A stretch of 64,000 nucleotides of DNA, taken from positions 13,371-77,370 of the forward strand of contig JANRLW010000070.1 of the NCBI GenBank assembly GCA_033762295.1. Direction: 5' to 3'. Below are positions 2,159 through 27,896 of the stretch, piece by piece; the stretch's first letter is position 1; the number at the start of each line of letters is the position of its first letter. The notes beneath the pieces were generated by a model. It did no database searches. It was not told where the DNA came from and saw only the letters and a program-made list of their open reading frames with translations. Source of the DNA: Capsulimonadales bacterium (GTDB lineage: Bacteria > Armatimonadota > Armatimonadia > Armatimonadales > Armatimonadaceae). The position numbers were made by a program, and so were the translations under genes.

Positions 2159-2246
2159 CCGGGTCTTCGTTTTTGGGTCTTTCCGATCATACGGGAACCA
2201 TCGATCGGCGTTATACTCACATCACCGGGAAAAACGGAGGCGGACG

Positions 2247-4125: not shown

Positions 4126-4213
4126 TCCGTTGGGCCGACGGAGGAGCAACGACCGCTCCCTGAAGGAATTTGCCGTTTTCCGAAGCGGAAACGACCGGGG
4201 GTAAATCATCGTC

Positions 4214-5563: not shown

Positions 5564-5712
5564 TCCCTTCCGATGCCGCTCGCGATTGCCAAGATTCGGG
5601 CGTTTCGTATATGATGGACCCCGGGAAGGGGGCATCGCCGGAAAAAGGCGAAGCGGGAACCTTCCCGGGGTTCAAGAACGAACCGACACACTTATTGTTT
5701 GGGGAGGGGCCA

Positions 5713-7539: not shown

Positions 7540-7548
7540 GAAAACCCC

Positions 7549-7584
7549 GGACGGCAGACCGATCCCCCGATCGGTCTGCCGTCC
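7549..7584. terminator. Perfect 16-bp hairpin between convergent genes
   Basis: GGACGGCAGACCGATC-CCCC-GATCGGTCTGCCGTCC. Confidence 0.75.
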
Positions 7585-7593
7585 TCCCCGCAC

Positions 7594-9654: not shown

Positions 9655-9655
9655 A

Positions 9656-9703
9656 GGTTTGGTCAATGGTTTGGTTAATGGTTGGGTTAATGGTTGGGTC
9701 AAG
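9656..9703 (-). repeat. 12-bp tandem repeat x4
   Basis: Minus strand ttgacccaacca ttaacccaacca ttaaccaaacca ttgaccaaacct. Confidence 0.8.
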
Positions 9704-9736
9704 GATTGGATGAAAGTTGGTGAATGCGGTGTTCTT

Positions 9737-12700: not shown

Positions 12701-14800
12701 CCGGTCGGAGAGGCGGTAGCCGTCCGGTTCCATCCCGGGAGGAAGCGGCACGAAGAAGGGCGGACCGACCGTACGGACATGTTCTCCGATGATGTCGAGT
12801 ATTTGCGCCTGGAACCGACCGCCACGGGTTGTCCGAACGGTCAGCAGGCGATCCCGGTCCGCAGTGAAGGCCGCCACCCGGGGAAGGTCGTTCCGGTCGT
12901 CGTTCCGTTCCGCGAGCCGGGCGAGCGTGAATCCGTCCGGATCGGGCGTCGGAAACCGCAGTTTGAAAGCCGGGGACCGATCGGAGTCGCCGGCGGAAGA
13001 AATCAGTCCGCCATCCCGGCTAAAGGCGACAAACGGCGTATATCGGTCAACCGGCGTCGCCTGGAGGAGACGGGGCGACCGGTTCAACGCTTCCGTGATC
13101 TGGGTGCCATAGACCCGGCGTCGTTTCGGATCCTTTTCCCGGTTCCAGGCGTCGGCGAAGAACGGCAGGGAGGCCAGATAGTCTCCGGAGTGAACGGCGG
13201 CCATCGCCGTGTTGACGTCGCGAGTAATGACCTCCCATTCGGCGACCTGCTGGGATTGCTCGGCCCGTCGTCTCTGTCGGGCCTCGCTGATTCGCGCGGA
13301 GGAGGCGACCTGTTCCTGGCGTCGGGCCTCTCGGGCGGCCTTGTTGGCGCGTTGGCTGGCCTCCTCCGCCTGTCGCCTCTGCCGCTCGGCCATCCGTTTC
13401 TGTGTTTCGGCGACCCGTTTCTGCCCCTCGGCGATTTCGGTCTGCCGTCGAGCGTTATCCCGTTCCTCCTGGGCAATGAGCCGCTGTCGATCCGCTTCGC
13501 TCTTTTGGTTCTGGGCGATGGCCTTTTGTTGTTCGGCGATATTTTTCGCTTTCAGTGCCTCCGCCCGTTGCTGAAAAGCAAAAAATGCCAGTGCACCAAA
13601 AAGGAGGACCAGGGCGCTCAGGCCGAGCGCGGCCCGCTTTAACCCGGCGCGGTACGCGCTGCGCAGGCGGCGCTTCTCGGCGTCCGGACGGTTTTCGTCG
13701 ATCCATTCCCGGTCGAAGACCCGACGATAGATGCGGTTTCGGACACGAAGGCTACCCTGGTCCACGCGAACGATGCCGGACAGTTTCAGCAGTACGACCA
13801 GCGGGTTGGTTTCGTCATCGGGAACCTGCGACCGTTCCTTCAAAAGGCGCTCATACAGCGCCAGAATCGCCGCCTTCTGCGCGTCGTCCGCCGGGTCGAT
13901 CGATCCCGTCTTCCGGGTGAGCATCCGGTTGGCAACATCGGCCAGGTGGACGTTCCCCCGGCGCGCGGCGCGTTCGAAATACATCTCCTCGACGAGAGCG
14001 TCCACCATGCGGACAGTGCGAAGCGAGGTGTCCTCAGCGATGCGGGCGCAGAGAGATTGGGTAAGAAACGGGTGTCCGCCGGTCCAGTAGTAGACACGAT
14101 CCAGCCAGGCGTCGCCCGCGCGACCGGCGCGATTCAGCCCTTCGCCGAGGGGAGCGATCTCCTGCCGGGTGAAGTCGCGCAGGTCGATCAACCGCCCGAT
14201 ATTGAACGGGGACAGGCGCGTGTCGCTGACCAGATCCGCCGGCGCCGCGGAACCGACGAGGCAGAAGGTGAGATGACGGAGGGCGGGTTGAGAGACACGC
14301 CGGTTGTAGAGCGACCGCAGGGCTCCGAAAAACTCATCCCGGGAGAAGGAAAGGTTGAGAACGGAATCGATCTCGTCGAGAATCAGAACGATCGGGCCGT
14401 CGATGCGGGCCAGAGCGATCTCCTCCAGGGCGGAAAAGAGCCAGGAGACCGGCGTCTGCTCGGCGCGTTCCCGACGATGCTGAGTGAATTCGGCATGCAG
14501 ACCGAGTTCGCGTCCGATCCGACTGAGCAGCGTCGCATACCACGCGGCCGAGGTGGCGTTCACTCCGCCGATCGCGCTGAGTTCGAGGTAGACCGTGCGA
14601 ACGTTGCGCGCCTCCAGCTCCTGCCGAACGCGGACGCAAAGCGAGGACTTGCCCATCTGCCGCGTATTCAAAAGGTAACAGTACTCGCCGTCCAGCAGAC
14701 CATGGAGCAGTTTCTCGTCGGAGTCTCTGACCAGATAGGAGGGGGCGTCGGTGGGAAGTGTGCCTCCGATGCGGAAAAAAGTACGGTCGTGTGCGGACAT
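9737..14800 (-). CDS. AAA_35 (STAND-like) ATPase - TM - coiled coil - WD40 repeats - TPR-like protein
   Basis: NTRQMGKSS Walker A, LILDEID Walker B, SPFNIG, WTGGHPFLTQ; one TM (ALGLSALVLLFGALAFFAF); many FSPDG...WD repeats. Confidence 0.87.
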   Translation of the reverse strand: MSAHDRTFFRIGGTLPTDAPSYLVRDSDEKLLHGLLDGEYCYLLNTRQMGKSSLCVRVRQELEARNVRTVYLELSAIGGVNATSAAWYATLLSRIGRELGLHAEFTQHRRERAEQTPVSWLFSALEEIALARIDGPIVLILDEIDSVLNLSFSRDEFFGALRSLYNRRVSQPALRHLTFCLVGSAAPADLVSDTRLSPFNIGRLIDLRDFTRQEIAPLGEGLNRAGRAGDAWLDRVYYWTGGHPFLTQSLCARIAEDTSLRTVRMVDALVEEMYFERAARRGNVHLADVANRMLTRKTGSIDPADDAQKAAILALYERLLKERSQVPDDETNPLVVLLKLSGIVRVDQGSLRVRNRIYRRVFDREWIDENRPDAEKRRLRSAYRAGLKRAALGLSALVLLFGALAFFAFQQRAEALKAKNIAEQQKAIAQNQKSEADRQRLIAQEERDNARRQTEIAEGQKRVAETQKRMAERQRRQAEEASQRANKAAREARRQEQVASSARISEARQRRRAEQSQQVAEWEVITRDVNTAMAAVHSGDYLASLPFFADAWNREKDPKRRRVYGTQITEALNRSPRLLQATPVDRYTPFVAFSRDGGLISSAGDSDRSPAFKLRFPTPDPDGFTLARLAERNDDRNDLPRVAAFTADRDRLLTVRTTRGGRFQAQILDIIGEHVRTVGPPFFVPLPPGMEPDGYRLSDRGRRIVLRLISSDKRELNKFLVFDTEERRIVFEQSLPDTRIMAEISRDGQLLAVRLPSRTYNQDSLCLYRLDPPDGRSASSPDPFARLPVWGGIHSVALDRAARRAVLATEYGTVLLPLPSPGAEEQVRFPRDPDGKHLLDTKYTTLACFAPGEELLLAANMNGLVFTYALSSNSAEARFITAFHAHGAQLVSLVMARDNDRLLTASKDNTAALWNPRTGQRIASPLRIAASPKTADLSPDGRFALTVDDGNRVRLWDTAPSSARQLTTMWHDMFVRQTVFSPDSHFIALIKSEGGMLLTDARTGIAQTAWLSARPFNASNLYPLNHISFSPDSRLVAVLDRYRSERDVTVIGSPLSEPLRTGSESRSEGVAIYEVPSGRLIGRFLLPGGENIRRCRFADHRTLYLAGDKGTLVPVDPRARRPLNTPLRLPAGIVDLDISPNGQYLALLSQDRRMELRDLRRRSLNDSGSLVRSQENTSGSCLRFSPDGRHLLSFGAIGNDHDAPQDAVLYRVADGQEWRRLPHEHTPVEAHFSPDGQRLLTRFNEADTVYLWDLQTGRWSIPPIRDSDSTAILSIAYSPDGQFVATGNKDGVVRFWDADSGMLMGLRKDARVLSLLRTDDPRKRINSCVTLAISPDGRSVASGGWLGVVCWDTPISSLTLSQAQDLSAVLATTHVLPFNRDRKERDMKLPTPAETDSAWARLKRASLTYRTNPVTAPTRVLQLRAKVCLARGDWAGAVGHLTQLLNSTEADPADPIDRWALEHRAYALIRQGAAAGALEDLNRTAFLLGGSGNTYLLAERGVLLLELGDVRGYRFLCDRATQLVTEWLGASPQTPAENIREAAVSTLRLASLTPSVSRETREHAAELAFYLMGDGSAPELSVVLAWRYREGRYAEASALYERLRASRAWDSLSDWERAWCATFGGMAAARLKNPESARERLLQAGQYAPNRPPAPSDWPNRRMILVLRREASGHPERATAVRPTGTR

Positions 14801-17098: not shown

Positions 17099-17308
17099 TC
17101 AGGCGAGACGGCGTTTTTCGACGATATCGATCTGGACCACCCGCCCGTCCTGAATAATCAGTTGGACAGAGCCATGGCGGACCTTCTCAATCGCGGCTTT
17201 GATTTCCTCAATCGGGATCGGGTGACCGTTTTTTACCGTATCCGATAGATCCGTCGGAGGAGCGGGGGGGTTGTCACTGACCTGAGCGATCTTTCCGGTT
17301 CGGTACAT
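17099..17308 (-). CDS. DUF2292 (YezD/OscA-like) small protein
   Basis: IKAAIEKVRHGSVQLIIQDGRVVQIDIVEKRRL. Confidence 0.85.
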   Translation of the reverse strand: MYRTGKIAQVSDNPPAPPTDLSDTVKNGHPIPIEEIKAAIEKVRHGSVQLIIQDGRVVQIDIVEKRRLA

Positions 17309-17347
17309 GGCATCCAATCCCTTAATCACCGATTGATAATTAAGACT

Positions 17348-18130
17348 TTATATCACTGATGCTACGTTTATGTCAATCTGACGTGCATCTGTTTCCGGTA
17401 CAGGCTTTTTTCGTCCAAGCAATTCGTCCAGGATATGCTCCTCGATCTTGGTGAACTCGATGGCGCTGTGGTTGCGGGGACGTGGAAGATCGACCGTTAT
17501 CGTATCCACGATCCGCCCCGCATCCAGCACGATCACACGGTCTGCAAGCGCAATCGCCTCCTCGACATCGTGTGTCACCAGAATGACGGTGAACCCCTCT
17601 TCAAGATAGAGTTCCTCGATCAATTGCTGCATCTCACGCCGGGTCAGCGCATCCAGCGCTCCCAGTGGTTCATCAAGCAACAGGAGCCTTGGACCGCTTG
17701 CCAGAGCACGGGCAAGCGCCACGCGCTGACGCTGTCCGCCCGAAAGAACGCCCGGCCAGTCCCCGGCGCGATCCTCCAGGCCGACATGCGATAATGCCCG
17801 CTGTACATGCTCGCCCGGCAACAATCCAAGCCCGATATTGTCGCGCACCCGTTGCCAGGGCAGGAGACGCGCCTCCTGAAACATCAGGCGTACATCGGGC
17901 GGAGTCCCGGCAAAGGTCTGACCATCGCGTCGAATCTGACCACGGGTCGGTGTATCGAGTCCGGCGGTCAGCCGGAGCAACGTGGATTTACCGCAGCCGC
18001 TCTTCCCGACGATGGCGACAAACTCCCCGGCCTCGACCGTGAGATCGATCCCTTTAAGGACGACCTTTGCTCCAAAAGATTTCTCCACCCCCTCGACGGT
18101 CAGGCGGGTGCCGCGCTCTTGCTGTCGCAT
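17348..18130 (-). CDS. ssuB: Aliphatic sulfonate ABC transporter ATPase
   Basis: [41 protein letters not shown]. Confidence 0.9.
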
Positions 18131-18990
18131 GTTGCCCTCTCCTTCCCCTCGGATCCCGGTGGCTGTGTCGCCTTTGCCCTCGTGTTTTGCTGACGTTCTG
18201 GCGGCGGTGTGGCCAGGTAATTCGCGTTCCAGGACAGCAGACGCCGTTCCAGCGCACGCGCAATCACATCGGCCAGTTTCCCCAGTAATGCATAGATCAG
18301 GGTTCCGACAACAACGATATCGGTCTGCATAAACTCCCGCGCCGTCGTGGTCAGATAACCGATGCCCGCCTCCGCTGCCAGCGCTTCCGCCGCAATCAAT
18401 GTCAGCCACATCGAGCCAAGCGAGAAACGCAGACCGACCAGGATAGAGGGCAGAGCGCCGGGAAAGATCACCAGACGGAACAATCGCCATCCGCGCAGAC
18501 CATAAACCTCTGCCATCTCGCGCAGACCGGGATCGATCGAACGAATGCCATGGTAGGTGTTGAGATAGAGCGGGAAGAAAACCCCGAGCGCGATCAGAAA
18601 GACCTTAGTCTCCTCCCCGATGCCGAACCAGAGGATGACCAGGGGAATCATCGCCAGGTTGGGGATCGTGCGCAACATCTGCACCGTGCTATCGAGCAAC
18701 GTGTAGGCGAGCCGTGACAGACCGGTGAGCAGACCAAGAGCAAAGCCAATGCTTCCTCCGATGAAAAGCCCGGTCAGCGCACGACCGGAGCTAACGGCGA
18801 GATGTTTCCAGAGATCCCCCGACTGGATCAAGGTCGACCCCGCCTTCAGGACAGCCGTTGGCGCGGGCAGGATCTTTGTCGGCAGAATGCCGGTGACGGA
18901 GAGAATATGCCAGAGCAGAAACAGCGTCAGAGGCAAGGCATAGGGCAATATGGCACCAGAAATCGCTCCGATTCGCCTGTTTATCTTCAC
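18100..18990 (-). CDS. ssuC: Aliphatic sulfonate ABC transporter permease
   Basis: [54 protein letters not shown]. Confidence 0.92.
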
Positions 18991-20024
18991 GGTCGAACGT
19001 TCTTTCTGTCAGCCGGAGCAAGAAGGGCATACTGCGCCGGGGTCAATGTCGCCTCGCGCACATCGATCTTTCGTGGCAGCAATCCGATCTTATAGAAGTT
19101 ATCCGCCGAGGTCTGTTGCGCTGCGATTATTTTTTCATCAATGGAACGAGCGCCCGTTCGAGAGCGCCGCTGCAAAAGAAACGTCAGCGTTTCCTTATCG
19201 ACTCCCGTGTTCCGAGCAAGCAGATCGGCGGTTTCCTGCGGATGCTGGTAGGACCATTCGCTCGCCCGATCCACCTCCTCCAGAACGATCTTGATCAACT
19301 CCGGATGCTCCTCGGCGAACTTGCGCGAGGAGAGATAGAACGCTCCCGGCGTGTTGATTCCCACACGATTGGCGATGATCCGTGCCCCGCTCTGTTTTAT
19401 CGCGACCGCGAGAAACGGGTCCCAGACGACCCAGGCATCGATCTTCCCGGACTCGAATGCAACGCGTGCATCCGGTGGCGCAAGATAGAGCGGTTGTATG
19501 TCCGAGTAGGCGATTCCCGCCTTCTGCAGATGCTGCAACAGCAGATTATGAGAGCCGGATGCCTTTTGAAAGGCGATCTTCTTCCCCTTCAAGTCCTGAA
19601 CCGATCGTATCGGTGAGTTTTTGGGGACGATGATCGCCTCACCATCCTCGGCATGCTCACCAAGGGGAATATTGGCAATATAGACAAGTGGGGTTCCGGC
19701 GGCCTGAGCGAACAGCGCCGGAGAGTCGCCGGTCGAGCCAATATCGATACTTCCGACTCCAAGCGCTTCAAGCAGAGGCAGTCCGGCAGTGAAATTGAGC
19801 CACTCGACGCTCACTCCTGCCGGTGCCAGACGCTTCTCCAGGTCGCCACGTAGTTTCAGCAGATTGAGCGGGTCGGCACGCTGATGCCCGATTCGCAGGA
19901 CGACATGCTTCCGGTTCGTGGCGGCAACACCTGTCGCCGCTGTCTCCCCGGCGGGCCGGGAACAGCCGGAAAGACAGACGCAGACCCCTAACAGCACCAG
20001 AATAAACCCGCACATCCTGCTCAT
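18987..20024 (-). CDS. ssuA: Aliphatic sulfonate ABC substrate-binding lipoprotein
   Basis: LSGC lipobox, LRIGHQ, F.AG.PLLEAL..GSID, DLKGKKIA, DAWVVWDPF. Confidence 0.88.
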   Translation of the reverse strand: MSRMCGFILVLLGVCVCLSGCSRPAGETAATGVAATNRKHVVLRIGHQRADPLNLLKLRGDLEKRLAPAGVSVEWLNFTAGLPLLEALGVGSIDIGSTGDSPALFAQAAGTPLVYIANIPLGEHAEDGEAIIVPKNSPIRSVQDLKGKKIAFQKASGSHNLLLQHLQKAGIAYSDIQPLYLAPPDARVAFESGKIDAWVVWDPFLAVAIKQSGARIIANRVGINTPGAFYLSSRKFAEEHPELIKIVLEEVDRASEWSYQHPQETADLLARNTGVDKETLTFLLQRRSRTGARSIDEKIIAAQQTSADNFYKIGLLPRKIDVREATLTPAQYALLAPADRKNVRP

Positions 20025-20044: not shown

Positions 20045-20923
20045 TTAGTCTTCGATAAACCAGCCAGCGGCGCTCGGATACTTCACCCGGCTGTAGACGA
20101 CACCGTTGGGATTGGGATTCGGCACCAGATTCTGATAGGACGCAAGCGACCCATCGGTGATGGAGGGGTTCGGGTCGCCGGTGTAGGACGGCGTCGAGGA
20201 TCGGACCCACTTGGCATGTCCATCGCCGAACGCGTAGTTGCCGCCGTCACTATGGCGGCTGCGCCCGGTGAAATACTCCGCGCTACAGATCACGGCATCC
20301 GGGATCTGGGCCAGAACGACGGGATCATCGATGCCATCGGTCCAGACACAGCGGCCACGCGCCTCCGTCAACAGGATTACCTGCGCCGGGTACTGTGGCT
20401 TGGCCAGGGTGGCGGAAGGAATCCGTCGTTCGGCGGCGACATTGAGCGCCATGGTCCCAATCAGGTATCGATTGACCGAATAGGAGAGCGAGGGGCGATA
20501 GGGGTTGCCTGCGGTCGAGTTGCCCGCGGTCCGCCCGGACTTATCGAAGGCGGGGCAGACAAAGATGCTTTTGCCGCCAGCCTGGGCGACGCTCGATGCC
20601 ATCCCCGCCTTGATATAGGGATCGACGGTATAGAGCCAGGTAACGTTGCCGATGCCGGGCGTCGCGCCCTCCGGCGTCGAGTTGGCCAGGGGATAGGTCT
20701 CATCGTAATCCTGTGCATACATCAGAAAACCGAGACCAAGCTGCTTCAGGTTTGAGAGGCAGGTCGTCTGTCGTGCTTTGTCCCTTGCCTGGGCGAACAC
20801 TGGGAAAAGAATCGCTGCCAGTATGGCGATTATGGCGATAACAACGAGCAGCTCGATCAGCGTAAACCCCGCTCCGGGGTGGAAACCGGATATGATCTTC
20901 CGATACGTGGGAGATGGTTTCAT
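20045..20923 (-). CDS. Prepilin-type N-terminal cleavage/methylation DUF1559 protein (H-X9-DG motif)
   Basis: [43 protein letters not shown]...[17 protein letters not shown]. Confidence 0.9.
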
Positions 20924-20977: not shown

Positions 20978-22054
20978 CTAACGTTCCTGGACAAGGGGCA
21001 GAAGTGGGAATACCAGTTCCGCGAACCGGTACGCCTCTTCAAGGTGGGGATAGCCTGACAGAATAAAACTGTCGATGCCGAGGTCCGCGTACTCGCGCAT
21101 CCGTTCGGCGACGGTCGCCGGATCGCCGACCAGGGCGGTGCCAACGCCGGGGCGCACCAGACCCAGACCGGCCCACAAGTTGGGACTGACCTCAAGGTGC
21201 GGGCCGCGTTTGCCTCCGTGCAGAGCCTGCATTCGACGTTGCCCTTCCGAGTTATCCCGTGAAAGCCAGTCCTGTGCGCGGGCGATCGTCTGATCGTCGA
21301 GACGCGAGATCAGTCGATCCGCCGCTTCCCAGGCCTCGTCACAGGTCTCACGCACAATGACATGCAGGCGGATACCAAAACGCACCGTTCGCCCGAACTC
21401 CGCCGCCTTCTCACGAACGCGATCTAATTTCTCTTTGACCTGCGCGGGCGGTTCCCCCCAGGTGAGATAGACATCGCTATGCCTGGCTCCGACCCGGATG
21501 CCCTCATCGGAGGAGCCGCCGAACCAGAGCGGCGGATAGGGCTTTTGTACGGTCGGGAACGGGTTACTCCCCCCCTCGATCCGGAAGAAGTCCCCCGCGA
21601 AGTCCGCTTTGCCCTCCTCCAAAAGAGAACGCCAGACGGTCAGGAACTCATCGGTCACCTGATAGCGGCGATTGTCCTCGACAAAGATCCCTTCCGCCGC
21701 CATCCGGTCCTGCGCTCCGCTCCCCGTCACGATATTGATCAGCAGACGTCCTCCGGTCATCCGGTCAAACGTCGCCGCCATACGCGCCGCCAGAGCGGGC
21801 TGCATGATCGCCGGGCGGATCGCCACCAAAAAGCGTAACCGCTGGGTCAATGCCGAGAGCCCGGATGCCAGAACCCACCCCTCCGGGCAGCCGACACCGG
21901 TCGGGAGCAATGCGCCATAGTAGCCAAGGGAATCCAGAGCCGTCGCCAGCGTCTTGAGGTAACCAAAGTCGGTCTGCCGACGCAGGACAGGTGAGCCAAG
22001 ATAATGCTCATCGCCCGGAGTCGGAAAAAACCAGAGAACGCGAATTCCACTCAT
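20978..22054 (-). CDS. ssuD: FMNH2-dependent alkanesulfonate monooxygenase (luciferase-like)
   Basis: LLPTG, RFLVAIRP, RLLINIVTG, FGGSS, YLTWGEPP, LEVSPNLWAG, FILSGYPHLEEAYRFAELVFP. Confidence 0.88.
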   Translation of the reverse strand: MSGIRVLWFFPTPGDEHYLGSPVLRRQTDFGYLKTLATALDSLGYYGALLPTGVGCPEGWVLASGLSALTQRLRFLVAIRPAIMQPALAARMAATFDRMTGGRLLINIVTGSGAQDRMAAEGIFVEDNRRYQVTDEFLTVWRSLLEEGKADFAGDFFRIEGGSNPFPTVQKPYPPLWFGGSSDEGIRVGARHSDVYLTWGEPPAQVKEKLDRVREKAAEFGRTVRFGIRLHVIVRETCDEAWEAADRLISRLDDQTIARAQDWLSRDNSEGQRRMQALHGGKRGPHLEVSPNLWAGLGLVRPGVGTALVGDPATVAERMREYADLGIDSFILSGYPHLEEAYRFAELVFPLLPLVQER

Positions 22055-22085
22055 ACTTATATTCTTATACTTCTTACGGCGTCGT

Positions 22086-22182
22086 CCAAAACGACGAAAG
22101 GCTGGAAACCCGGCCAGAAACCGCCCGATTCCTCCGGCAGTCTCCAGCAGAAAGGTTTCCAGCCTCCTGTTGACAGGTCAGC
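22086..22182 (-). ncRNA. Conserved structured 5' leader/attenuator, copy A
   Basis: GCTGA-CCTG-TCAA-CAGG-AGGCTGGAAACC...GGTTTCCAGCCT-TTCGTCGTTTTGG. Confidence 0.7.
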
Positions 22183-22202
22183 TACTTTCTCAAATTTATC
22201 GC

Positions 22203-22222
22203 ATACCGATTAAATCGGTCGA
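22203..22222 (-). promoter_or_regulatory. Putative operator (near-palindrome)
   Basis: TCGACCGATTTAATCGGTAT; 16/20 identical to 26919-26938. Confidence 0.55.
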
Positions 22223-22250
22223 ATTTTACAACAATATCTCATTCATCCAG

Positions 22251-22279
22251 AGTATAGCCTGGCATTTCAGGTATGTCAA
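22251..22279 (-). promoter_or_regulatory. sigma70 promoter of the ssuD-DUF1559-ssuACB-DUF2292 operon
   Basis: TTGACA-17 bp-TATACT. Confidence 0.8.
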
Positions 22280-22315
22280 GTTAAAGTAGCTCTTTTCTTG
22301 TTTTGCCTTACGCCC

Positions 22316-22344
22316 TTGACAACGGGGTTCTATCGGGGCATAAT
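22316..22344 (+). promoter_or_regulatory. sigma70 promoter of the ssuD2-ssuA2-tauD-AKR operon
   Basis: TTGACA-17 bp-CATAAT. Confidence 0.75.
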
Positions 22345-22438
22345 GCCCGAACAAGCAAAGTTGATTTTAGCAATCAACTAACCGGCAATTTAATAGCGTA
22401 TTCCGTTTTTACGCTATGCCGGCGGTCCGTTACGACCG

Positions 22439-22512
22439 GCTGACCCGTTAACGGGAGGCCAGAGCTTTATGAACGACATTTCGTTCGTAAAGCTCTGGCC
22501 TCGTTTTTTTGG
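22439..22512 (+). ncRNA. Conserved structured 5' leader/attenuator, copy B
   Basis: GCTGA-CCCG-TTAA-CGGG-AGGCCAGAGCTTTATGAACGA-CATT-TCGTTCGTAAAGCTCTGGCCT-CGTTTTTTTGG. Confidence 0.7.
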
Positions 22513-22538
22513 CGTGTCGCTTCGACAGGAGAAAGACC

Positions 22539-23744
22539 ATGAACGGACTCGATGTTTTCTGGTATTTACCGACACAGGGTGATGAACGATATCTCGGCAC
22601 CTCACACGGACTGCGAAAGCCGACGCCCGCCTATCTGCAACAGATCACGCAGGCGGTCGATTCCCTAGGCTACGGGGGCATGTTGCTCGGCACGGGCACC
22701 AAACTCGACCCGTTGATCGTGGCCACTTCCCTGATCCATGTCACAAAACGCCTCAAGTTTCTGGTCGCGGCCCGCCCCTCCATCATGACGCCTGCACTCT
22801 GGGCACGTATGGCGGCCAGTTTCGATCAGTTGTCGCAGGGACGGATTCTGCTCAATATCGTCACCGGCGGCAGCACCGAACAGTTGGAGAGCGATGGGAT
22901 CTTCGCCGATCATGAGGAGCGCTATGAGATCACCGATGAGTTCCTGCATATCTGGCGCTCCCTGATGCTCGGGGAAACGGTGAATTTCGAGGGCAAACAT
23001 CTCCGCATCAAAAACGGCCAGCAGCAGCTACAGCCGATCCAGAAGCCCTATCCTCCGCTCTACTTCGGCGGTTCCTCCCCTGCGGCGCTCGATGTCGCCG
23101 CCCGCCATATCGATGTCTACCTCTCCTGGGGCGAACCGCCGGCGATGGTCCGGGAAAAGATCGAGGAGGTGCGCCGCCGTGCCGCTACCCATGGACGCAC
23201 TCTTCGCTTTGGTATCCGTCTCCATATCATCGCCCGTGAGACCGATGCCGAAGCCTGGGCCGTCGCCGAGAAACTGATCCAGCATGTCAGCGATGAGTCG
23301 ATCCAGCGAACGCTTAAATCCTATGAGCGTTCTGAGTCCGAGGGACAGAAACGGATGGCGTCGCTTCACAACGGTCGGCGCGACAGTCTGGAAATCTACC
23401 CCAACCTCTGGGCGGGTGTCGGCCTTGCCCGTGGCGGCGCGGGAACCGCTCTGGTCGGATCGGGCCAATCCATTGCCCGTCTGATGGGCGAGTATCAGGA
23501 GCTTGGCATCGACACCTTTGTTCTTTCCGGCTACCCCTCGCTTGAGGAAGCCTATCACTGCGCCGAGTATGTTTTCCCCCATCTGAAACAGCCCGTTCCC
23601 GCGACCTCGCCCTTTAACTCAGGTACGGAAGGGCCACAGATGGCACGCTGGCGCACCGCCCACGATGTTTCCGAATCGGCAGTCCAGTCTCCGCTAACGA
23701 AGGTCGCCGCACGAAATGAACCGGCGCTTTCAGGAAGGAACTGA
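22539..23744 (+). CDS. ssuD: Alkanesulfonate monooxygenase paralog
   Basis: VFWYLPTQGD.RYLG, KFLVAARP, YLSWGEPP, LEIYPNLWAGVGLARGGAGTALVG. Confidence 0.88.
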   Translation: MNGLDVFWYLPTQGDERYLGTSHGLRKPTPAYLQQITQAVDSLGYGGMLLGTGTKLDPLIVATSLIHVTKRLKFLVAARPSIMTPALWARMAASFDQLSQGRILLNIVTGGSTEQLESDGIFADHEERYEITDEFLHIWRSLMLGETVNFEGKHLRIKNGQQQLQPIQKPYPPLYFGGSSPAALDVAARHIDVYLSWGEPPAMVREKIEEVRRRAATHGRTLRFGIRLHIIARETDAEAWAVAEKLIQHVSDESIQRTLKSYERSESEGQKRMASLHNGRRDSLEIYPNLWAGVGLARGGAGTALVGSGQSIARLMGEYQELGIDTFVLSGYPSLEEAYHCAEYVFPHLKQPVPATSPFNSGTEGPQMARWRTAHDVSESAVQSPLTKVAARNEPALSGRN

Positions 23745-23746
23745 TC

Positions 23747-24814
23747 ATGCGAGGTACACCCCTTCCTCTCCTGTCGCTCACGCTATGGATACTGACCATC
23801 ACCGGTTGTACGACAACGCCGACCGGGAGCGGCACAACAACAGCACAGGCTCCAGTGAAGCTACGGATCGGTTATGGCAAAGGCGGCAACTTCAATATCA
23901 TGCGCCTGCGCGGCACACTGGAGAAGCGGCTTGCCGGACAGAATGTGAAGGTCGAATGGATCAACTTCCCGATGGGGCCGCAGGCGATGGAGGCGATCGG
24001 TACACGTAGCCTGGAGATCGGCAGCACCGCCGCCACCCCTCCGCTCTTTGCGCAGGCGGCGGGAATCGACTTCGTCTATGCCGCCAACACTCCTCCTGGC
24101 AAATCCGGCAGTGGCGGCGCAATCATCGTCCCGATCGATTCGCCGCTTCGCTCCCTTCGTGATCTCAAAGGGAAACGAGTCGCTTTTCAGCCCGGCGCGG
24201 TCTGGCAGTACCTGCTGATCAAGGCGCTGGAACGTGAGGGAATGCAGTATTCCGATATCATTGCGGTCAAGATGCCGCCCGCCGATGCCACCGCCGCCTT
24301 TCATAGCGGTTCCATCGACGCCTGGGTTCAGGGTGAGCCCTACCTCACGCTGGTGCAGCAGAAGGGTGAGGGGCGCATTCTGGTCAGTACAAAGGACATC
24401 CCGACCTCCGGTGGCTTTATTCTCACACCACGCACCTTCGCCGCCGAACACCCGGAACTGATCCAGGTGACGCTCGATGAACTGCGAAAGACAGGCGATT
24501 GGGCGCGGCAGCACCCGCATGAGGCAGCCACCATGACCGCGCAGTCCGGCGGGTTAGACGTGCCCACCCTCGAACAGATGATCCGCCAGCAGGAGAACAC
24601 CGAACTGCGCCCGGTCGATGCCAGCGTCATTGCGCTTCAACAGGAGCAGGCCGACTATCTGACCCGTCTCAAGATCCTACCCCGGAAGATTGCGGTGCAG
24701 GATGCCGTGCTCTCCGCAGACCAGTACGCCCGTATTCTGCCGCCTCCCGCATCCCATCAGGAGGCGCGTGCGATACAGACCACTTCCACGATTCATCAGA
24801 CCCGCGAAAGGTAG
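23747..24814 (+). CDS. ssuA: Sulfonate ABC substrate-binding lipoprotein paralog
   Basis: ITGC lipobox, LRIGY, WINFPMGP, FAQAAG, DLKGKRVA. Confidence 0.82.
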   Translation: MRGTPLPLLSLTLWILTITGCTTTPTGSGTTTAQAPVKLRIGYGKGGNFNIMRLRGTLEKRLAGQNVKVEWINFPMGPQAMEAIGTRSLEIGSTAATPPLFAQAAGIDFVYAANTPPGKSGSGGAIIVPIDSPLRSLRDLKGKRVAFQPGAVWQYLLIKALEREGMQYSDIIAVKMPPADATAAFHSGSIDAWVQGEPYLTLVQQKGEGRILVSTKDIPTSGGFILTPRTFAAEHPELIQVTLDELRKTGDWARQHPHEAATMTAQSGGLDVPTLEQMIRQQENTELRPVDASVIALQQEQADYLTRLKILPRKIAVQDAVLSADQYARILPPPASHQEARAIQTTSTIHQTRER

Positions 24815-24821
24815 ATTTTCC

Positions 24822-25772
24822 ATGTCCACGCAAACTTTAGACGTGCCCGTCGCTTCACGGAACGCCGCTCATCTGACAATCTCTCCGGTGACGCCGGTCA
24901 TTGGCGCGGAGGTGTCCGGCATCGACCTGCGCCAACCGCTCGATGACTTCACCATCGACCAGCTTAAAAATGCCCTGCATCAATGGAAGGTCCTGTTTTT
25001 CCGCGATCAGCCGATCAGCGATCAGGACCAGTTGCGCTTCGGTCGCTACTTCGGCCCGCTGACACCGGCGCACCCGATCGCCGAGGGACTGCCAGAGCAT
25101 CCGGAGATCTGGGAGCGGTCGGCATCGGAGTACAAGCGCCATCGCCCTGATGTCTCCGTCGTGACGGCGCGTCCGCCCCGTGACTACAAGGGCTGGCATA
25201 TCGATATCACCTTTGTCGCAAACCCCAACAAGTACTCGATTCTACGTGGCGTCGAGATCCCGGCCTATGGCGGCGATACGCTCTGGAGCAATCTGGTTGC
25301 CGCCTATGAGGGACTATCCCCGAAGATCAAGGAATTGATCGACGACCTGCAAGCGGTGCACGGCACAAGCAGTTATGATCGCGGAAGCGGCGACAAACCG
25401 CGCAAGGGACCGTTCGTCTCCCTGCACCCACTGGTTCGCGTGCATCCGGAGACGCGGGAGAAAGCGCTCTTCTTCAATCCGGGAACGACAACCCATATCA
25501 TCGGACTGCGCGAGCGTGAGAGCCAGGCGATCCTCGACCTGCTTGCGGAGGAGGTGACGCGCCCGGAATATCAGGTTCGGTTCCACTGGTCCCCGAATGC
25601 AATCGCCTTCTGGGATAACCAGGTGACCGCCCATGCCGGTCCGATCGACTATGCCCACTTCACCGCGACGCGCACCGTGCGACGTATCACGGTGGCGGGT
25701 GACCTGCCGGAAGGACCGGACGGTTTCCGTTCCCGGCCGATTGAGGGCGAGCTTTTCGGAATTATCGGGTAA
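24822..25772 (+). CDS. TauD/TfdA family 2OG-dependent dioxygenase (taurine or alkylsulfate)
   Basis: IGAEVSGIDL, WHIDITF, GGDTLW, HPLVRVHPET, FWDNQVTAH. Confidence 0.9.
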   Translation: MSTQTLDVPVASRNAAHLTISPVTPVIGAEVSGIDLRQPLDDFTIDQLKNALHQWKVLFFRDQPISDQDQLRFGRYFGPLTPAHPIAEGLPEHPEIWERSASEYKRHRPDVSVVTARPPRDYKGWHIDITFVANPNKYSILRGVEIPAYGGDTLWSNLVAAYEGLSPKIKELIDDLQAVHGTSSYDRGSGDKPRKGPFVSLHPLVRVHPETREKALFFNPGTTTHIIGLRERESQAILDLLAEEVTRPEYQVRFHWSPNAIAFWDNQVTAHAGPIDYAHFTATRTVRRITVAGDLPEGPDGFRSRPIEGELFGIIG

Positions 25773-25830
25773 CACGGAAAGAGCGGTCCTATCGTTTCGG
25801 TGGGGCCATCTCGAAAGGAAATTTCACCGC

Positions 25831-26859
25831 ATGGCAGGAATCGTTCCGACTGTTCCACTGGGTAAATCCGGCCTAAAAGTCAGTAACCTTTGCCTTGGCT
25901 GTATGAATTTCGGGGAGTCTACGAGTGAGGAGGACTCGCTGGAAATACTGCGTCAGGCGCATGAAACCGGCGTCACCTTCTGGGATACCGCCAATGTCTA
26001 CAGCAATGGCGGCAGTGAGGCCATTCTCGGCAAAGCCTTTGAACAATTCGGCTTTCGGGATGAGATCATTCTTGCTACCAAGGTCAACGGTGCGATGGGT
26101 CCCGGTGCCAATGACCGCGGGCTTTCGCGTCGGCATATCTTAAAAGCCGTCGAGGACAGCCTGCGTCGTCTGAAGACCGACTATATCGACCTCTACCAGA
26201 TGCATCGCTATGACCCGACTGTGCCTCTGGATGAGACCCTGGAAACGCTCCATCTGCTTATCCAGCAGGGCAAGATCCGCTACTATGGCACCAGCACCTT
26301 TGCCTCATGGCAGATGGCGGATGCGCTCTGGCGGGCGCGGCTCAAGGGATGGAACGAGGCAGTGAGCGAGCAGGCCCCGTACAATATCCTCGACCGACGC
26401 ATCGAAAACGACCGGGCCGGGTTCCTGCGCCAGTACGGTTGGGGTCTGATTCCCTGGTCACCGCTCGCCGGGGGACAGCTTACCGGCAAGTACGGCCAGA
26501 TTCGCCCGGATAACCTGCCGGAGGGCTCCCGTATCCAGCGCAACGACCGCTGGCGCGAACGGACCAACTCCACCGCCGCTGAGGCATCCCTCGCCTTTAC
26601 CGCGCTCGCACAGGAGCATGGCTACGATCCCTCTGTCGCCGCCACTGCCTGGGTCCGTCAGCAGGACATCGTCACCGCGCCGATTGTCGGCCCGCGCACG
26701 CTGGAGCAGTTTACAGGCCTTCTGCCCGCCGCGAATCTGGTCCTGCCCGCAACCTTCCTGAGCGCCGTCGATGAGATCGTTCCACCGGGAACTGCCGTCG
26801 CCCACTTCCTGAACAACGCCGGATGGCAGATCGGTCGCCTCTCCGGCCTGGACAAATAG
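25831..26859 (+). CDS. Aldo/keto reductase
   Basis: LGKSGLKVSNLCLG, DTANVY, LATK, SLRRLKTDYIDLYQMH, WSPLAGG. Confidence 0.9.
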   Translation: MAGIVPTVPLGKSGLKVSNLCLGCMNFGESTSEEDSLEILRQAHETGVTFWDTANVYSNGGSEAILGKAFEQFGFRDEIILATKVNGAMGPGANDRGLSRRHILKAVEDSLRRLKTDYIDLYQMHRYDPTVPLDETLETLHLLIQQGKIRYYGTSTFASWQMADALWRARLKGWNEAVSEQAPYNILDRRIENDRAGFLRQYGWGLIPWSPLAGGQLTGKYGQIRPDNLPEGSRIQRNDRWRERTNSTAAEASLAFTALAQEHGYDPSVAATAWVRQQDIVTAPIVGPRTLEQFTGLLPAANLVLPATFLSAVDEIVPPGTAVAHFLNNAGWQIGRLSGLDK

Positions 26860-26868
26860 CGTTGCGAC

Positions 26869-26897
26869 TTGACAGGGAATCGCTTTCGTGTTATAAC
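26869..26897 (+). promoter_or_regulatory. sigma70 promoter of the second DUF1559 gene
   Basis: TTGACA-17 bp-TATAAC with extended -10 TG. Confidence 0.8.
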
Positions 26898-26918
26898 GAA
26901 AACGCAATCACATATTCG

Positions 26919-26938
26919 TCGATCAATTAAATCAGTAT
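26919..26938 (+). promoter_or_regulatory. Putative operator, copy 2
   Basis: TCGATCAATTAAATCAGTAT. Confidence 0.55.
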
Positions 26939-26952
26939 TAATCAAAACCAGT

Positions 26953-27017
26953 GCTGACCCGTCATCGGGAGGCCGGTAGAATCGCAAACCGCGATCTACC
27001 GGCCTTTGTCTTTTTGG
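26953..27017 (+). ncRNA. Conserved structured 5' leader/attenuator, copy C
   Basis: GCTGA-CCCG-TCAT-CGGG-AGGCCGGTAGAATCGC-AAACC-GCGATCTACCGGCCT-TTGTCTTTTTGG. Confidence 0.7.
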
Positions 27018-27029
27018 AGGAAACCAAGT

Positions 27030-27896
27030 ATGTCTTTACCATCCTCTCGCTCACTGAGAGCGAGCGCCTTCACTCTCATCGAATTACTTGTTGTTATCGC
27101 CATAATAGCGATTCTGGCAGCGATTCTTTTCCCGGTCTTTGCTCAGGCACGGGAGAAAGCCCGACAGACGACCTGCCTTTCTAACGAGAAGCAGCTTGGC
27201 CTGGCCATCCTTGGCTATGTTCAGGACTTCGATGAAACCTACCCGGTGGCGAATTACCCGGCACCTCCGAGTATCGAAGCCGGTCTCGATGCCAATTCGC
27301 GGCTACACTGGTATAGCCTGGTCGAGCCCTATATCAAAGGTGGCTACACCCGCACTTCCGCAAGCGCCGTCGGCACAACCGCCGGGAAGAAACTCAGCAT
27401 CTATGTCTGCCCGACCTATGATAAGAAGGCCCGCGCCTTCAATCTCAATCCCTCATGGAGCTATGTGATCAACTCGAATCTCGCGCCGCCTCGCGCCCAG
27501 AACCCGGCCACCCCGGATATCCCCCCGGCCTGGGCAAACCAGGCTCCGGGCACACTGGCCTCTGTCCAGGCCCCGGCGAACGTTGTTCTGGTTGCAGAAG
27601 GCTCTGGAGGACGCGTCTACACCCCCGGCAACGACACCGGCAACTATGAGTTTTACCCCGCCTACGGCACCGGGAAAGATACCAGTCTGACCTATATCTA
27701 TGCACGTACGCGCCATGGCGGCGGATCGAATGTCCTGCTGACCGACGGGCACGCCAAATGGTTCCGCTTTCCCGAACCGAGCTTCACCTCACCGGACAGT
27801 AACTACCTGAACGATGTGCCGGTGCAGAGCAATAACACCGTCGCCTATCAGAAGAGCCTCTCGCCCAACGCTCAGGCCTGGTTCCGCGAGGACTGA
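27030..27896 (+). CDS. Prepilin-type DUF1559 protein (H-X9-DG motif)
   Basis: [34 protein letters not shown]...[17 protein letters not shown]. Confidence 0.9.

Follow-up and report, generated by a model that had tools for sequence, protein, structure and literature searches.

An uncatalogued hairpin-terminator RNA ahead of sulfur-acquisition genes in many bacterial phyla, with a DUF2292 protein as its probable partner

Three copies of an uncatalogued RNA element, which precedes genes of sulfur acquisition across many bacterial phyla, lie in the window, the whole stretch of 64,000 nucleotides of Capsulimonadales DNA analyzed here. Our best reading, held with somewhat more confidence than doubt, is a conditional terminator/antiterminator switch for sulfur starvation that is probably run by a DUF2292 protein. 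The three leaders comprise the following features:

22251..22279, minus strand: sigma-70-type promoter of the copy-1 transcript, TTGACA-17-TATACT, 11/12 (promoter scan)
22182-22162, minus strand: copy 1 motif, GCTGACCTGTCAACAGGAGGC (exact pattern match)
22165-22099, minus strand: copy 1 terminator helix (minimum-energy fold), then an interrupted U-run, UUCGUCGUUUUGG
22086..22182, minus strand: whole leader element of copy 1 (sequence, exact match, fold, model R1 38.6 bits)
22316..22344, plus strand: sigma-70-type promoter of the copy-2 transcript, TTGACA-17-CATAAT, 11/12 (promoter scan)
22439-22459, plus strand: copy 2 motif, GCTGACCCGTTAACGGGAGGC (exact pattern match)
22456-22501, plus strand: copy 2 terminator helix of 20 pairs (minimum-energy fold), then a U-run
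22439..22512, plus strand: whole leader element of copy 2 (sequence, exact match, fold, model R1 38.3 bits)
26869..26897, plus strand: probable promoter of the copy-3 transcript (read by eye)
26953-26973, plus strand: copy 3 motif, GCTGACCCGTCATCGGGAGGC (exact pattern match)
26970-27005, plus strand: copy 3 terminator helix (minimum-energy fold), then a U-run
26953..27017, plus strand: whole leader element of copy 3 (sequence, exact match, fold, model R1 39.4 bits)

All three copies put forward in the original prediction were recovered in place from the sequence and by pattern matching. They share the plan GCUGA-CCYG-NNNN-CRGG-AGGC, each continuing into a long terminator whose stem opens with AGGC and ends with GCCT and a T-rich tail (3/3 copies). 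Pattern GCTGACCYGNNNNCRGGAGGC has three exact matches in the window; allowing two mismatches raises this to four, against 0.07 expected, and 0/100 shuffles reached this number. In the whole genome (5.16 Mb) up to one mismatch gave six places, only the three window copies being exact and followed by a terminator. The terminator helices folded in 3/3 copies while their interiors bear no sequence relation to one another, in keeping with the prediction of unrelated stems with retained pairing; a simple terminator scan returned copy 2 only, because the stem loops of copies 1 and 3 exceed its limit. A promoter was likewise located ahead of each copy, two by scan and the third by eye (TTGACA at 26869-26874, a 17-nt spacer and TATAAC at 26892-26897), the latter being absent from the scan list because the scanner demands T at the last position. 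AT-rich inverted repeats, possible operators, were also seen between promoter and motif, e.g. at 22205-22219.

The genes behind the three leaders are listed below:

20978..22054, minus strand: SsuD, FMNH2-dependent alkanesulfonate monooxygenase (TIGR03565 537.5 bits, cut-off 518.2; Bac_luciferase)
20045..20923, minus strand: DUF1559 / prepilin-type N-terminal methylation protein with H-X9-DG domain, within the ssu operon (domain matches)
18987..20024, minus strand: SsuA-like NMT1-family substrate-binding protein (domain match)
18100..18990, minus strand: ABC permease, SsuC-like (BPD_transp_1)
17348..18490, minus strand: ABC ATPase, SsuB-like (ORF as listed)
17099..17329, minus strand: DUF2292 (OscA/YezD-like) small protein (PF10055 54.2 bits, cut-off 22; ORF)
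22539..23744, plus strand: second SsuD alkanesulfonate monooxygenase (TIGR03565 535.3 bits vs 518.2)
23747..24814, plus strand: SsuA-like NMT1-family binding protein (domain match)
24690..25772, plus strand: TauD-family dioxygenase, ORF as listed (PF02668 206 bits)
25633..26859, plus strand: aldo/keto reductase, ORF as listed (domain match)
27030..27896, plus strand: DUF1559 prepilin-like protein (domain matches; Cys+Met composition)

Two SsuD-type sulfonate operons thus stand under the motif in the window, in the order ssuD - DUF1559 - ssuA - ssuC - ssuB - DUF2292 behind copy 1 and ssuD2 - ssuA2 - tauD - aldo-keto reductase behind copy 2, and a sulfur-poor DUF1559 prepilin-like gene lies downstream of copy 3. 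The true start of the SsuB-like ORF is probably further downstream, as suggested by an ABC domain that begins only at residue 145 and by the overlap with ssuC. The TauD-family ORF scored 224.5 bits with the taurine dioxygenase model NF007104, under the cut-off of 313.

In the 21-nt hairpin, an inner stem (C-Y-N-G/C-N-R-G) capped by a 4-nt loop is separated by a G-A/A internal loop from an outer GCU/GGC stem, the latter contributing -3.2 kcal/mol to the isolated hairpin in folding calculations. The proposal that the GCU/GGC extension and the AGGC-based terminator are mutually exclusive proved thermodynamically plausible, the terminator fold beating the fold with enforced outer stem by 5.0, 8.1 and 5.3 kcal/mol in the three copies, and read-through would therefore need a factor. 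The covariation claimed for the small hairpin was borne out by 26 sequences at the two middle pairs of the inner stem (pair 2: CG 15, UA 11; pair 3: CG 13, UA 8, GC 2, AU 1, UG 1), with 99.5% of cells paired overall versus 29.9 to 52.7% with slid partners, and both closing pairs are invariant. A pattern scan without a complementarity requirement found complementary arms in 28/28 terminator-bearing matches versus 43/95 others. The outer GCU/GGC pairing is barely tested by covariation because it is nearly invariant, the only change being U-G to C-G in 2/26 sequences.

Based on this anatomy, each copy would work in cis as a conditional terminator, placed in the 5' leader of a transcript for sulfur starvation. 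During transcription the hairpin would fold first, its 3' AGGC doubling as the 5' base of the long intrinsic terminator. Unaided, the RNA would refold to the full terminator and transcription would halt. Held shut by a factor, the hairpin would serve as antiterminator, leaving the terminator without its bottom 3 to 4 pairs, away from the U-run, and RNA polymerase would read on into the genes. The factor would most likely be DUF2292 (OscA/YezD family), encoded last in the copy-1 operon here, binding the hairpin and turning the switch on in sulfur starvation.

The covariance-model search (model R2, E <= 0.01) returned only the three window copies in the genome, all in the sulfur island, with no sign of the genome-wide scatter regardless of sulfur genes that was looked for. 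Elsewhere it matched 30/71 genomes of the window's order, 15/151 genomes sampled from its phylum, other families included, and 33/81 genomes in a sample of the order to which a Geobacter record belongs. By pattern scan, motif and terminator were found in records titled Moorella, Geobacter, Methylomirabilis, Rokuibacteriota, Actinomycetota, Ktedonobacterales and Bacillota, with five copies each, in sulfur islands, in Moorella thermoacetica and one Geobacter. Genes following the motif there include sat-cysC, a sulfate-binding protein, ssuCBA, cysK, metK and cysH, nifH/nifDK-like genes with a radical SAM gene, and an Rrf2 regulator with cysK, and first downstream ORFs also encode SsuD-like, NMT1, sulfite reductase, PAPS reductase, ATP sulfurylase and Porin_O_P proteins. 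The proposed tie to sulfur genes held in other genomes, where terminator-bearing copies stand before sulfur genes and 36/39 pattern matches without a called terminator stand before unrelated ones. In some relatives (L007, L008, L010) the hairpin is present and the terminator absent, which requires a second output there, such as translation.

A constitutive leader structure (pause, processing or stabilizing site) followed by a leaky terminator, with all regulation at the promoters, appears highly improbable. The possible operator repeats would suit it, and regulated termination is here something that we infer; however, the hairpin-terminator overlap is kept across phyla while terminator interiors are free to vary, the motif is confined to sulfur-linked leaders, and a strong terminator between promoter and genes would otherwise be pointless.

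Neither the window copies nor 13 loci of other phyla matched any Rfam 15 family in cmscan, which upholds the view that the element belongs to no known family and is not a SAM riboswitch, and our full-text literature search found no description of such an RNA element. One Methylomirabilis locus (L099) carries a separate SAM-I riboswitch ~360 nt upstream of a motif copy. SAM riboswitches and the sul1 (PMC5737381) and dauA (PMC11109978) motifs, as far as the excerpts of these sources describe them, are likewise cis-regulatory RNAs in sulfur or methionine gene leaders, but our sequences gave no cmscan match to them and structures and taxa differ.

While the attenuation element of the original prediction stood, its probable trans-acting partner, the DUF2292 protein at 17099-17329 (minus strand), had been overlooked. 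It is encoded by the sole DUF2292 gene in the genome. Motif and DUF2292 co-occurred in 13 genomes of the phylum sample (motif only 2, DUF2292 only 1, neither 135; n = 151), 28 of the window's order (2, 3 and 38; n = 71) and 31 of the Geobacter-order sample (2, 9 and 39; n = 81), for which Fisher p-values make too strong a case, since these are interrelated genomes, many of them incomplete. Thus 13/15, 28/30 and 31/33 motif-positive genomes carry DUF2292, against 9/48 motif-negative ones in the Geobacter-order sample. Six motif-positive genomes across the three samples, two in each, lack it; one of them (G176) probably represents a false motif match in coding sequence. No DUF2292 match was obtained in one Rokuibacteriota MAG with motif copies. 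In the window's order, 27/34 DUF2292 matches are followed on their own strand by a motif copy no more than 100 nt away, a layout shared by records titled Geobacter, Methylomirabilis, Ktedonobacterales, Actinomycetota and Lachnobacterium; in Moorella and in one genome from the window's phylum a motif copy comes first and DUF2292 after it. Anywhere from 2 to 88 nt separate the DUF2292 stop codon from the motif (33 cases), a spread that speaks against a ribosome-position-dependent mechanism. The co-occurrence could also reflect DUF2292 being merely the most faithful regulon member.

The chief rival to a DUF2292-operated switch is a true riboswitch, possible but clearly the less probable of the two, in which a sulfur-status metabolite would bind the hairpin at the G-A/A internal loop and stabilize it against the terminator, and DUF2292 would be only a commonly co-regulated gene. 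Candidate ligands would be O-acetylserine or N-acetylserine for an ON switch and, with a different geometry, sulfate, sulfite, APS or cysteine. Near-invariance of the RNA over six or more phylum-level groups by record title, alongside covariation within the helix, resembles the extreme cross-phylum sequence conservation typical of metabolite-binding RNAs; multiple copies per genome ahead of non-homologous sulfur genes and the few motif-positive genomes without DUF2292 agree with it as well. On the other hand, a 21-nt hairpin with a 2x1 internal loop leaves little for a specific pocket, the co-occurrence with one protein is unexpected for a self-sufficient riboswitch, DUF2292 upstream of the terminator, as in 27/34 cases in the order, occupies a regulator's rather than a regulated gene's place, and the invariant inner closing pairs and whole outer stem resemble sequence-specific helix recognition. 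A precedent for a tiny aptamer exists in the HMP-PP riboswitch (thiS motif; Atilho et al. 2019, PMC6478431), described in the excerpted source as a compact 5'-leader switch whose small sensing hairpin lies nearly all inside a classic intrinsic terminator. Its conserved sequence is unrelated to the window motif, which has no Rfam match, and it controls thiamin rather than sulfur-acquisition genes without a specific small protein, whereas our motif co-occurs with DUF2292.

Alternatively, another trans-acting factor, such as an ANTAR-type or other RNA-binding regulator, a small RNA, or the ribosome via GAGG in the 3' half, might bind the hairpin, DUF2292 playing a different role in sulfur starvation. 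We consider this unlikely. Three ANTAR proteins are encoded in the genome, the conserved GAGG looks like a Shine-Dalgarno core, and no known RNA-binding fold was recognized in DUF2292 from its predicted structure (one helix and two strands, mean pLDDT 72), by Foldseek (no match at E <= 0.001) or by sequence search of the PDB (no relative). However, the ANTAR genes sit on other contigs, unlinked to the island, and the family, taken as control, occurs in 108/151 phylum-sample genomes including motif-negative ones; in the three window copies no start codon stands at a conserved distance after GAGG, and no further gene family was seen traveling with the motif across phyla. ANTAR regulators (EutV, NasR, AmiR) also antiterminate through small hairpins, but their targets are two hexaloop hairpins, one overlapping the terminator, unlike the single hairpin with variable tetraloop found here.

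A DUF2292-operated switch would have parallels in other systems. BglG/SacY/LicT proteins prevent termination by binding to the RAT hairpin, which, like our motif, has an internal loop and overlaps the 5' arm of the terminator. The predicted likeness to BglG/SacY holds only as an analogy: sequence and size differ, the window motif has no PTS link, and neither a CAT_RBD domain nor a HutP family gene was found in the genome. HutP of Bacillus subtilis, a small oligomeric protein, binds spaced UAG triplets in its leader RNA to prevent termination, and the hut operon has the regulator gene first, then the terminator and the structural genes, comparable to the DUF2292-motif layout. DUF2292 is unrelated to HutP, its proposed target is a single hairpin, and it is last in the copy-1 operon; as with HutP or BglG, which can sit within the regulated operon, it would be encoded under its own control.

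The window protein, one of a family of ~50 to 70 aa, resembles OscA, the Pseudomonas sulfur starvation response protein, likewise a small DUF2292-kind protein encoded beside sulfur-uptake genes; with 26.7 bits against NF033785 (sulfur_OscA, cut-off 85) it is an OscA relative, not an equivalog. No RNA role for OscA was described in the literature searched. Inactivation of oscA renders Pseudomonas corrugata chromate-sensitive (Viti et al. 2009 as cited in PMC2996968) and oscA-sbp is induced upon chromate exposure (PMC2996968); as given in that excerpt, both would fit a positive factor in the sulfur-starvation response. The copy-3 DUF1559 protein is the poorest in Cys+Met among the genome's 101 paralogs (0.73 per 100 aa; median 3.83), that of the ssu operon has 2.56 (rank 9/101), and in relatives 24/24 motif-controlled DUF1559 proteins fall below 3.83, with a median of 1.26. 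Sulfur-poor DUF1559 proteins behind the motif suggest the direction of control, namely sulfur starvation.

The original prediction placed three copies of a leader element in the window, and the corresponding sequence was found in each place. The copies and the terminator helices obtained by folding are as follows:

22086–22182, minus strand: leader copy 1
22439–22512, plus strand: leader copy 2
26953–27017, plus strand: leader copy 3
22165–22099, minus strand: terminator helix of copy 1
22456–22501, plus strand: terminator helix of copy 2
26970–27005, plus strand: terminator helix of copy 3

All three copies consist of GCUGA, a 4-bp stem with a 4-nt loop and then AGGC, together forming a 21-nt hairpin (termed the motif), where the stem reads CCUG/CAGG in copy 1 and CCCG/CGGG in copies 2 and 3. 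In each copy a long helix starts at AGGC, is closed by GCCU and runs into a U-rich tail, and AGGC is thus common to the hairpin and to the terminator base in 3/3 copies. A promoter scan identified strong sigma-70-type promoters upstream of copies 1 and 2, and a proposed promoter for copy 3 was identified by eye. Based on calculated fold energies, the isolated hairpin gains −3.2 kcal/mol from an outer GCU/GGC stem, and the full terminator is more stable than the fold with this outer stem enforced by 5.0, 8.1 and 5.3 kcal/mol for copies 1, 2 and 3, respectively. As the terminator fold is energetically ahead, termination would be the default state and read-through would need a stabilizing factor. 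The element is probably a conditional switch between hairpin and terminator, with regulated termination as its candidate function.

The AT-rich leader between the copy 1 promoter and the motif also contains a perfect inverted repeat, ACCGATTAAATCGGT, at window 22205–22219, and comparable AT-rich inverted repeats lie upstream of motif copies at three further loci (L039, L045 and L060). These repeats could be operator sites or additional leader hairpins.

The unit headed by copy 1 starts with an SsuD scoring above the TIGR03565 cut-off and continues with a DUF1559 prepilin-like protein, the SsuA-, SsuC- and SsuB-like parts of a transporter and, last, a small DUF2292 protein. In the copy 2 unit, another SsuD is followed by an SsuA-like protein, a dioxygenase of the TauD family and an aldo-keto reductase, and copy 3 precedes a further DUF1559 protein. 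The window has 39 other ORFs of ≥100 aa; Pfam analysis of 38 of them, omitting one antisense ORF inside tauD, revealed no additional sulfur-scavenging genes, indicating that the three units are the entire island. Three listed ORFs carry long N-terminal extensions overlapping the preceding genes, and the true starts of these genes are probably internal:

17348–18490, minus strand: SsuB-like ORF with N-terminal extension
24690–25772, plus strand: TauD ORF with N-terminal extension
25633–26859, plus strand: aldo-keto reductase ORF with N-terminal extension

Elsewhere in the window, two adjacent large genes (7597–9795 and 9740–14800, both minus strand), one encoding TIR_2 and AAA_35 domains and the other AAA_35 and WD40 repeats in 1687 aa, resemble a STAND-type pair for signalling or defence.

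The 21-nt pattern matched exactly three times within the window, and four times with up to two mismatches versus 0.07 matches expected by chance. Beyond these three, the 5.16 Mb genome contains no other exact copies and no other copies with a terminator. For wider searches, two covariance models of the motif were built, R1 from 11 and R2 from 26 sequences. In the own genome, R2 yielded at E ≤ 0.01 exactly three matches, the window copies, whose scores were 38.3 to 39.4 bits (R1) and 35.8 to 37.7 bits (R2). These copies show the features of the family as a whole: G-C-U-G-A, a 4-bp stem, defined in the family by invariant closing pairs C-G and G-C, a 4 to 5-nt loop and A-G-G-C running on into an intrinsic terminator, with a sulfur-linked gene downstream and a DUF2292 gene in the genome, usually within one transcription unit with the motif and here within that of copy 1. 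No Rfam 15 family matched the motif in window 21500–27500 (cmscan, E ≤ 10), where merely three chance matches to miRNA and snoRNA models appeared, far under the gathering score. The same was observed for 13 loci from other phyla (cmscan, E ≤ 1), in which SAM, cobalamin and tRNA matches lay away from the motif. The proposed novelty of the element thus stands as far as Rfam 15 is concerned.

Counting genomes at R2 E ≤ 0.01, we detected the motif in 30 of the 71 genomes of the window's order, which is the whole class in the collection, as a class-level search returned the same 71 genomes. It was likewise present in 15/151 genomes of a phylum sample, in six further families, and in 33/81 genomes sampled from the order to which a Geobacter record belongs, where a single genome carried as many as 12 copies. 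A pattern scan across contigs, using one genome per species, gave at least 121 loci, of which flanking DNA was examined for 80; the resulting list of phyla is a sample, not a census. Among the matches listed, 123 were distinct, and 28 of these had a stem of ≥8 pairs and a T-rich tail, in records titled Candidatus Methylomirabilis, Candidatus Rokuibacteriota, Geobacteraceae, Desulfuromonadales, Actinomycetota, Ktedonobacterales, Lachnobacterium, Caproicibacter and other Bacillota. The terminator caller, our own script, overlooks stems with mismatches, as it did the imperfect terminator of the Moorella thermoacetica match L154.

Several loci depart from the common arrangement. In three genomes of one genus, g7 (loci L007, L008 and L010, position 1501), the hairpin lies 15 to 19 nt past the DUF2292 stop codon and the terminator is absent, with only a 3-bp GGC/GCC mini-hairpin (GCU in L007) ahead of the DUF1559 start, so the output in this genus is probably other than transcription termination. 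Locus L055 (G064:C292, 1472–1535, minus strand) contains two tandem copies without terminators, which have extended outer stems, one with A-U replacing G-C, and are directed at the 3′ terminus of an opposite-strand DUF2292 gene, an atypical arrangement. Furthermore, a SAM-I riboswitch (77.8 bits; 2913–3044, minus strand) lies about 360 nt upstream of the motif copy at the Methylomirabilis locus L099, and a cobalamin riboswitch (111.6 bits; 1970–2192, plus strand) about 300 nt upstream of that in a Bacillota MAG (L145); these may be stacked RNA controls.

The structure of the small hairpin is supported by covariation. In the 26-sequence alignment each of the two middle stem pairs shows two-sided changes in 11 sequences, with pair 2 being CG or UA and pair 3 CG, UA, GC or AU, and 99.5% of all cells are paired versus 29.9 to 52.7% with the partners slid. 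These sequences were recruited by a model containing CCYG/CRGG stems only, which therefore did not presuppose the new stem types. The pattern scan, which imposed no complementarity, provides a less biased test: among the matches listed, the stem was complementary in 28/28 with a terminator versus 43/95 without, and the 28 comprise eight stem types. The outer GCU/GGC stem is near-invariant, varying only by a U-G to C-G change in 2/26 sequences and, in a few atypical copies, by A-U and G-U. Its sequence is compatible with pairing, which is not proven by covariation; that its nucleotides are shared by two structures would itself account for the invariance.

To delineate the regulon in other genomes, we analyzed the genes behind the motif. 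Five copies occur within about 30 kb in Moorella thermoacetica and five within about 11 kb in a Geobacter, each heading a transcription unit. The Moorella units encode (i) sat-cysC, an FAD protein, a ferredoxin, a sulfate-binding protein and a permease, (ii) ssuC-ssuB-ssuA-cysK, (iii) a NifX-like protein, a NifH-like protein and cysK, (iv) a radical SAM protein and two NifD/K-like proteins, and (v) two proteins without a Pfam family. Those of Geobacter encode (i) a NifH-like protein, (ii) an Rrf2 regulator and cysK, (iii) metK, a PNPOx-like protein and an MFS transporter, (iv) a BcrAD/HGD-D set, and (v) a porin with SsuA-like and permease genes. The motif-headed nitrogenase-like genes are located as follows:

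L226 (Moorella, G208:C3:30001-46000), 2009–4344 and 4904–9929: NifX-, NifH- and two NifD/K-like proteins and a radical SAM protein
L227 (Geobacter), 3015–3935: nitrogenase-like gene

We take these genes to resemble the methylthio-alkane reductase type of sulfur-salvage enzymes. The first downstream ORF was scanned in 64 cases, comprising 56 of 68 terminator-bearing instances and 8 of 16 others, these eight being instances from the window's phylum without a called terminator; omitted ORFs were scanned elsewhere, N-containing, short, near-duplicate, cut or from doubtful matches.

Families of the first ORF downstream of the motif (64 ORFs)
DUF1559/N_methyl: 22
NMT1-type binding proteins: 5
SsuD-like luciferase family: 3
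Porin_O_P: 3
PALP (cysteine synthase-like): 2
Radical SAM: 2
DUF2292: 2
TPR: 2
Sulfate-binding SBP_bac_11: 1
Sulfite reductase: 1
PAPS reductase: 1
ATP-sulfurylase N-domain: 1
DUF1847: 1
adh_short: 1
SBP_bac_5: 1
No family: 16

In a control set of 39 pattern matches lacking a called terminator, 36 lay ahead of unrelated or Pfam-less genes, and the remaining three with sulfur genes (L139, L153 and L154) are real copies with imperfect terminators.

The DUF1559 proteins provide an indication of the direction of the switch. Of 101 DUF1559 paralogs in the own genome only two are located in motif-controlled units. The copy 3 protein (27030–27896, plus strand) contains two Cys and no Met in 275 mature residues, corresponding to 0.73 Cys+Met per 100 aa, the lowest value among the 101 paralogs (median 3.83), and the copy 1 operon protein (20045–20923, minus strand) ranks 9th lowest. 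Among relatives (loci L021–L084), 24/24 motif-controlled DUF1559 proteins fall below this median, the background distribution being that of the own genome only, with a median Cys+Met of 1.26 and two proteins devoid of any Cys or Met. The motif-controlled members thus look like sulfur-sparing paralogs of an abundant surface/periplasmic protein family. As sulfur-poor paralogs are sensible only under sulfur scarcity, the element most likely turns its genes on in sulfur starvation.

A hairpin competing with a terminator follows a logic known from RAT/BglG, HutP and ANTAR systems, and we compared the element with each. The CAT_RBD RNA-binding protein (PF03123) that distinguishes BglG/SacY-type RAT antitermination had no match in the own genome, which is 94.5% complete, with the control positive in 4/14 well-known genomes. 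Likewise, HutP (PF09021), required for HutP-type antitermination, gave no match in the own genome, with a positive control in B. subtilis. ANTAR targets have a two-hexaloop shape, which is not seen in the window copies. The own genome encodes three ANTAR genes, all on other contigs, and ANTAR, which serves as a negative control for co-occurrence, is present in 108/151 phylum-sample genomes, motif-less ones included, versus the motif in 15; an ANTAR protein is therefore unlikely to be the specific partner. Competition between hairpin and terminator is also described for the HMP-PP riboswitch or thiS motif (PMC6478431), whose small hairpin overlaps an intrinsic terminator as in the window copies, but which binds HMP-PP and is associated with thiS/thiamin-precursor genes, whereas sulfur-acquisition genes and DUF1559 are found here. 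The sul1 and dauA motifs, as described, are different RNAs. A leader-peptide attenuator was rejected because the three leaders lack a conserved start codon and a Cys/Met-rich mini-ORF, and ribosome binding at GAGG because a conserved start codon is absent.

We found a candidate for the stabilizing factor in DUF2292. The own genome has a single PF10055 match (window 17105–17212, minus strand), in the last gene of the copy 1-headed operon. The protein scores 54.2 bits against a PF10055 cut-off of 22, and 26.7 bits against a cut-off of 85 for its nearest NCBIfam family, the 'sulfur starvation response protein OscA' (NF033785, sulfur_OscA). It is a member of the DUF2292 family and not an OscA equivalog. 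Motif and DUF2292 gene co-occurred in all three genome samples.

Genomes with the motif and DUF2292 (both; motif only; DUF2292 only; neither)
Phylum sample (151): 13; 2; 1; 135
Own order (71): 28; 2; 3; 38
Geobacter-order sample (81): 31; 2; 9; 39

Fisher p-values were 7e-16 (phylum), 4e-14 (own order) and 4e-12 (Geobacter order), which overstate the co-occurrence because the genomes are related. One motif-only genome of the phylum sample is probably a false match in coding sequence, the DUF2292-only match there is weak (29 bits), and two of the three DUF2292-only genomes in the own order carry a sub-threshold motif directly after the gene. Presence is patchy inside genera, with 3/6 genomes in g7 and 9 to 10/24 in a second genus, g14, rendering simple shared ancestry a weaker explanation.

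The gene layout links the two further. In the order, 27/34 DUF2292 matches have a same-strand motif copy ≤100 nt downstream, and this layout also occurs in records titled Geobacter, Methylomirabilis, Ktedonobacterales, Actinomycetota and Lachnobacterium. In hutP and some bglG-type systems, the regulator gene likewise precedes the terminator under its control. In 33 cases the motif lies 2 to 88 nt past the DUF2292 stop codon, a spread that counts against a mechanism relying on the ribosome stopping position. A motif copy precedes DUF2292 in this window, as it does in Moorella and in one genome from the window's phylum, an arrangement that would create feedback.

Alignment of DUF2292 proteins revealed a shared core of about 37 residues (...IRFGxVQIIIQDGRVVQIDKTEKIRL), devoid of a conserved cysteine, in which G, V, G, Q, K and R positions are invariant and the carboxy-terminus is basic. 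The AlphaFold2 model comprises one helix and a two-stranded hairpin, with a mean pLDDT of 72 and 85 to 91 in the core. Foldseek against the PDB yielded no structural relatives at E ≤ 0.001, and the top rows, AbrB and MazE, were rejected, as E values of about 2 are not evidence; phmmer gave no sequence matches in the PDB. Lacking a PDB relative by structure or sequence, the protein offers no independent sign for or against RNA binding. In Pseudomonas corrugata, inactivation of oscA results in chromate sensitivity and oscA-sbp is strongly induced upon chromate exposure, as reported in PMC2996968. The literature searched contained no proposal for the mechanism of DUF2292/OscA in sulfur starvation or chromate resistance.

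Together, co-occurrence and layout point to DUF2292 as the probable protein partner of the hairpin. That DUF2292/OscA/YezD is a hitherto unrecognized family of small RNA-binding antiterminators, constituting with the 21-nt GCUGA...AGGC hairpin a multi-phylum sulfur-starvation attenuation system, we consider an evenly balanced proposition. Its targets would then depend on the lineage, including sulfate assimilation, sulfonate scavenging and cysteine synthesis, for which we see the chances as equal either way, and, held with the same middling confidence, nitrogenase-like organosulfur reductases and sulfur-sparing paralogs. The full-text literature searched, mostly outside subscription journals, contained neither a description of the motif nor an RNA role for DUF2292/OscA, and as far as this search extends, no previous description appears to exist of the putative RNA family or of its regulon and candidate partner protein. 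The original prediction of an undescribed attenuation element is thereby supported, and can be extended to a family that spans multiple phyla and probably has a protein partner.

The regulators known to act in sulfur starvation are mainly DNA-binding proteins (CysB/Cbl, CymR, McbR) and SAM or T-box RNAs, and we know of no sulfur regulator that the phyla carrying the motif have in common. Were the RNA itself to bind a metabolite, it would rank with the smallest riboswitches and, as far as the literature was searched, be the first for general sulfur status. The link to the motif supplies a concrete candidate function for DUF2292/OscA. Moreover, the motif flags DUF1559 pseudopilin-like proteins as likely sulfur-sparing paralogs in the window's lineage, as well as nitrogenase-like enzymes in Moorella and Geobacter. 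One tiny RNA element marks the probable sulfur-starvation regulon across phyla and is therefore usable to read out this regulon in uncultured bacteria.
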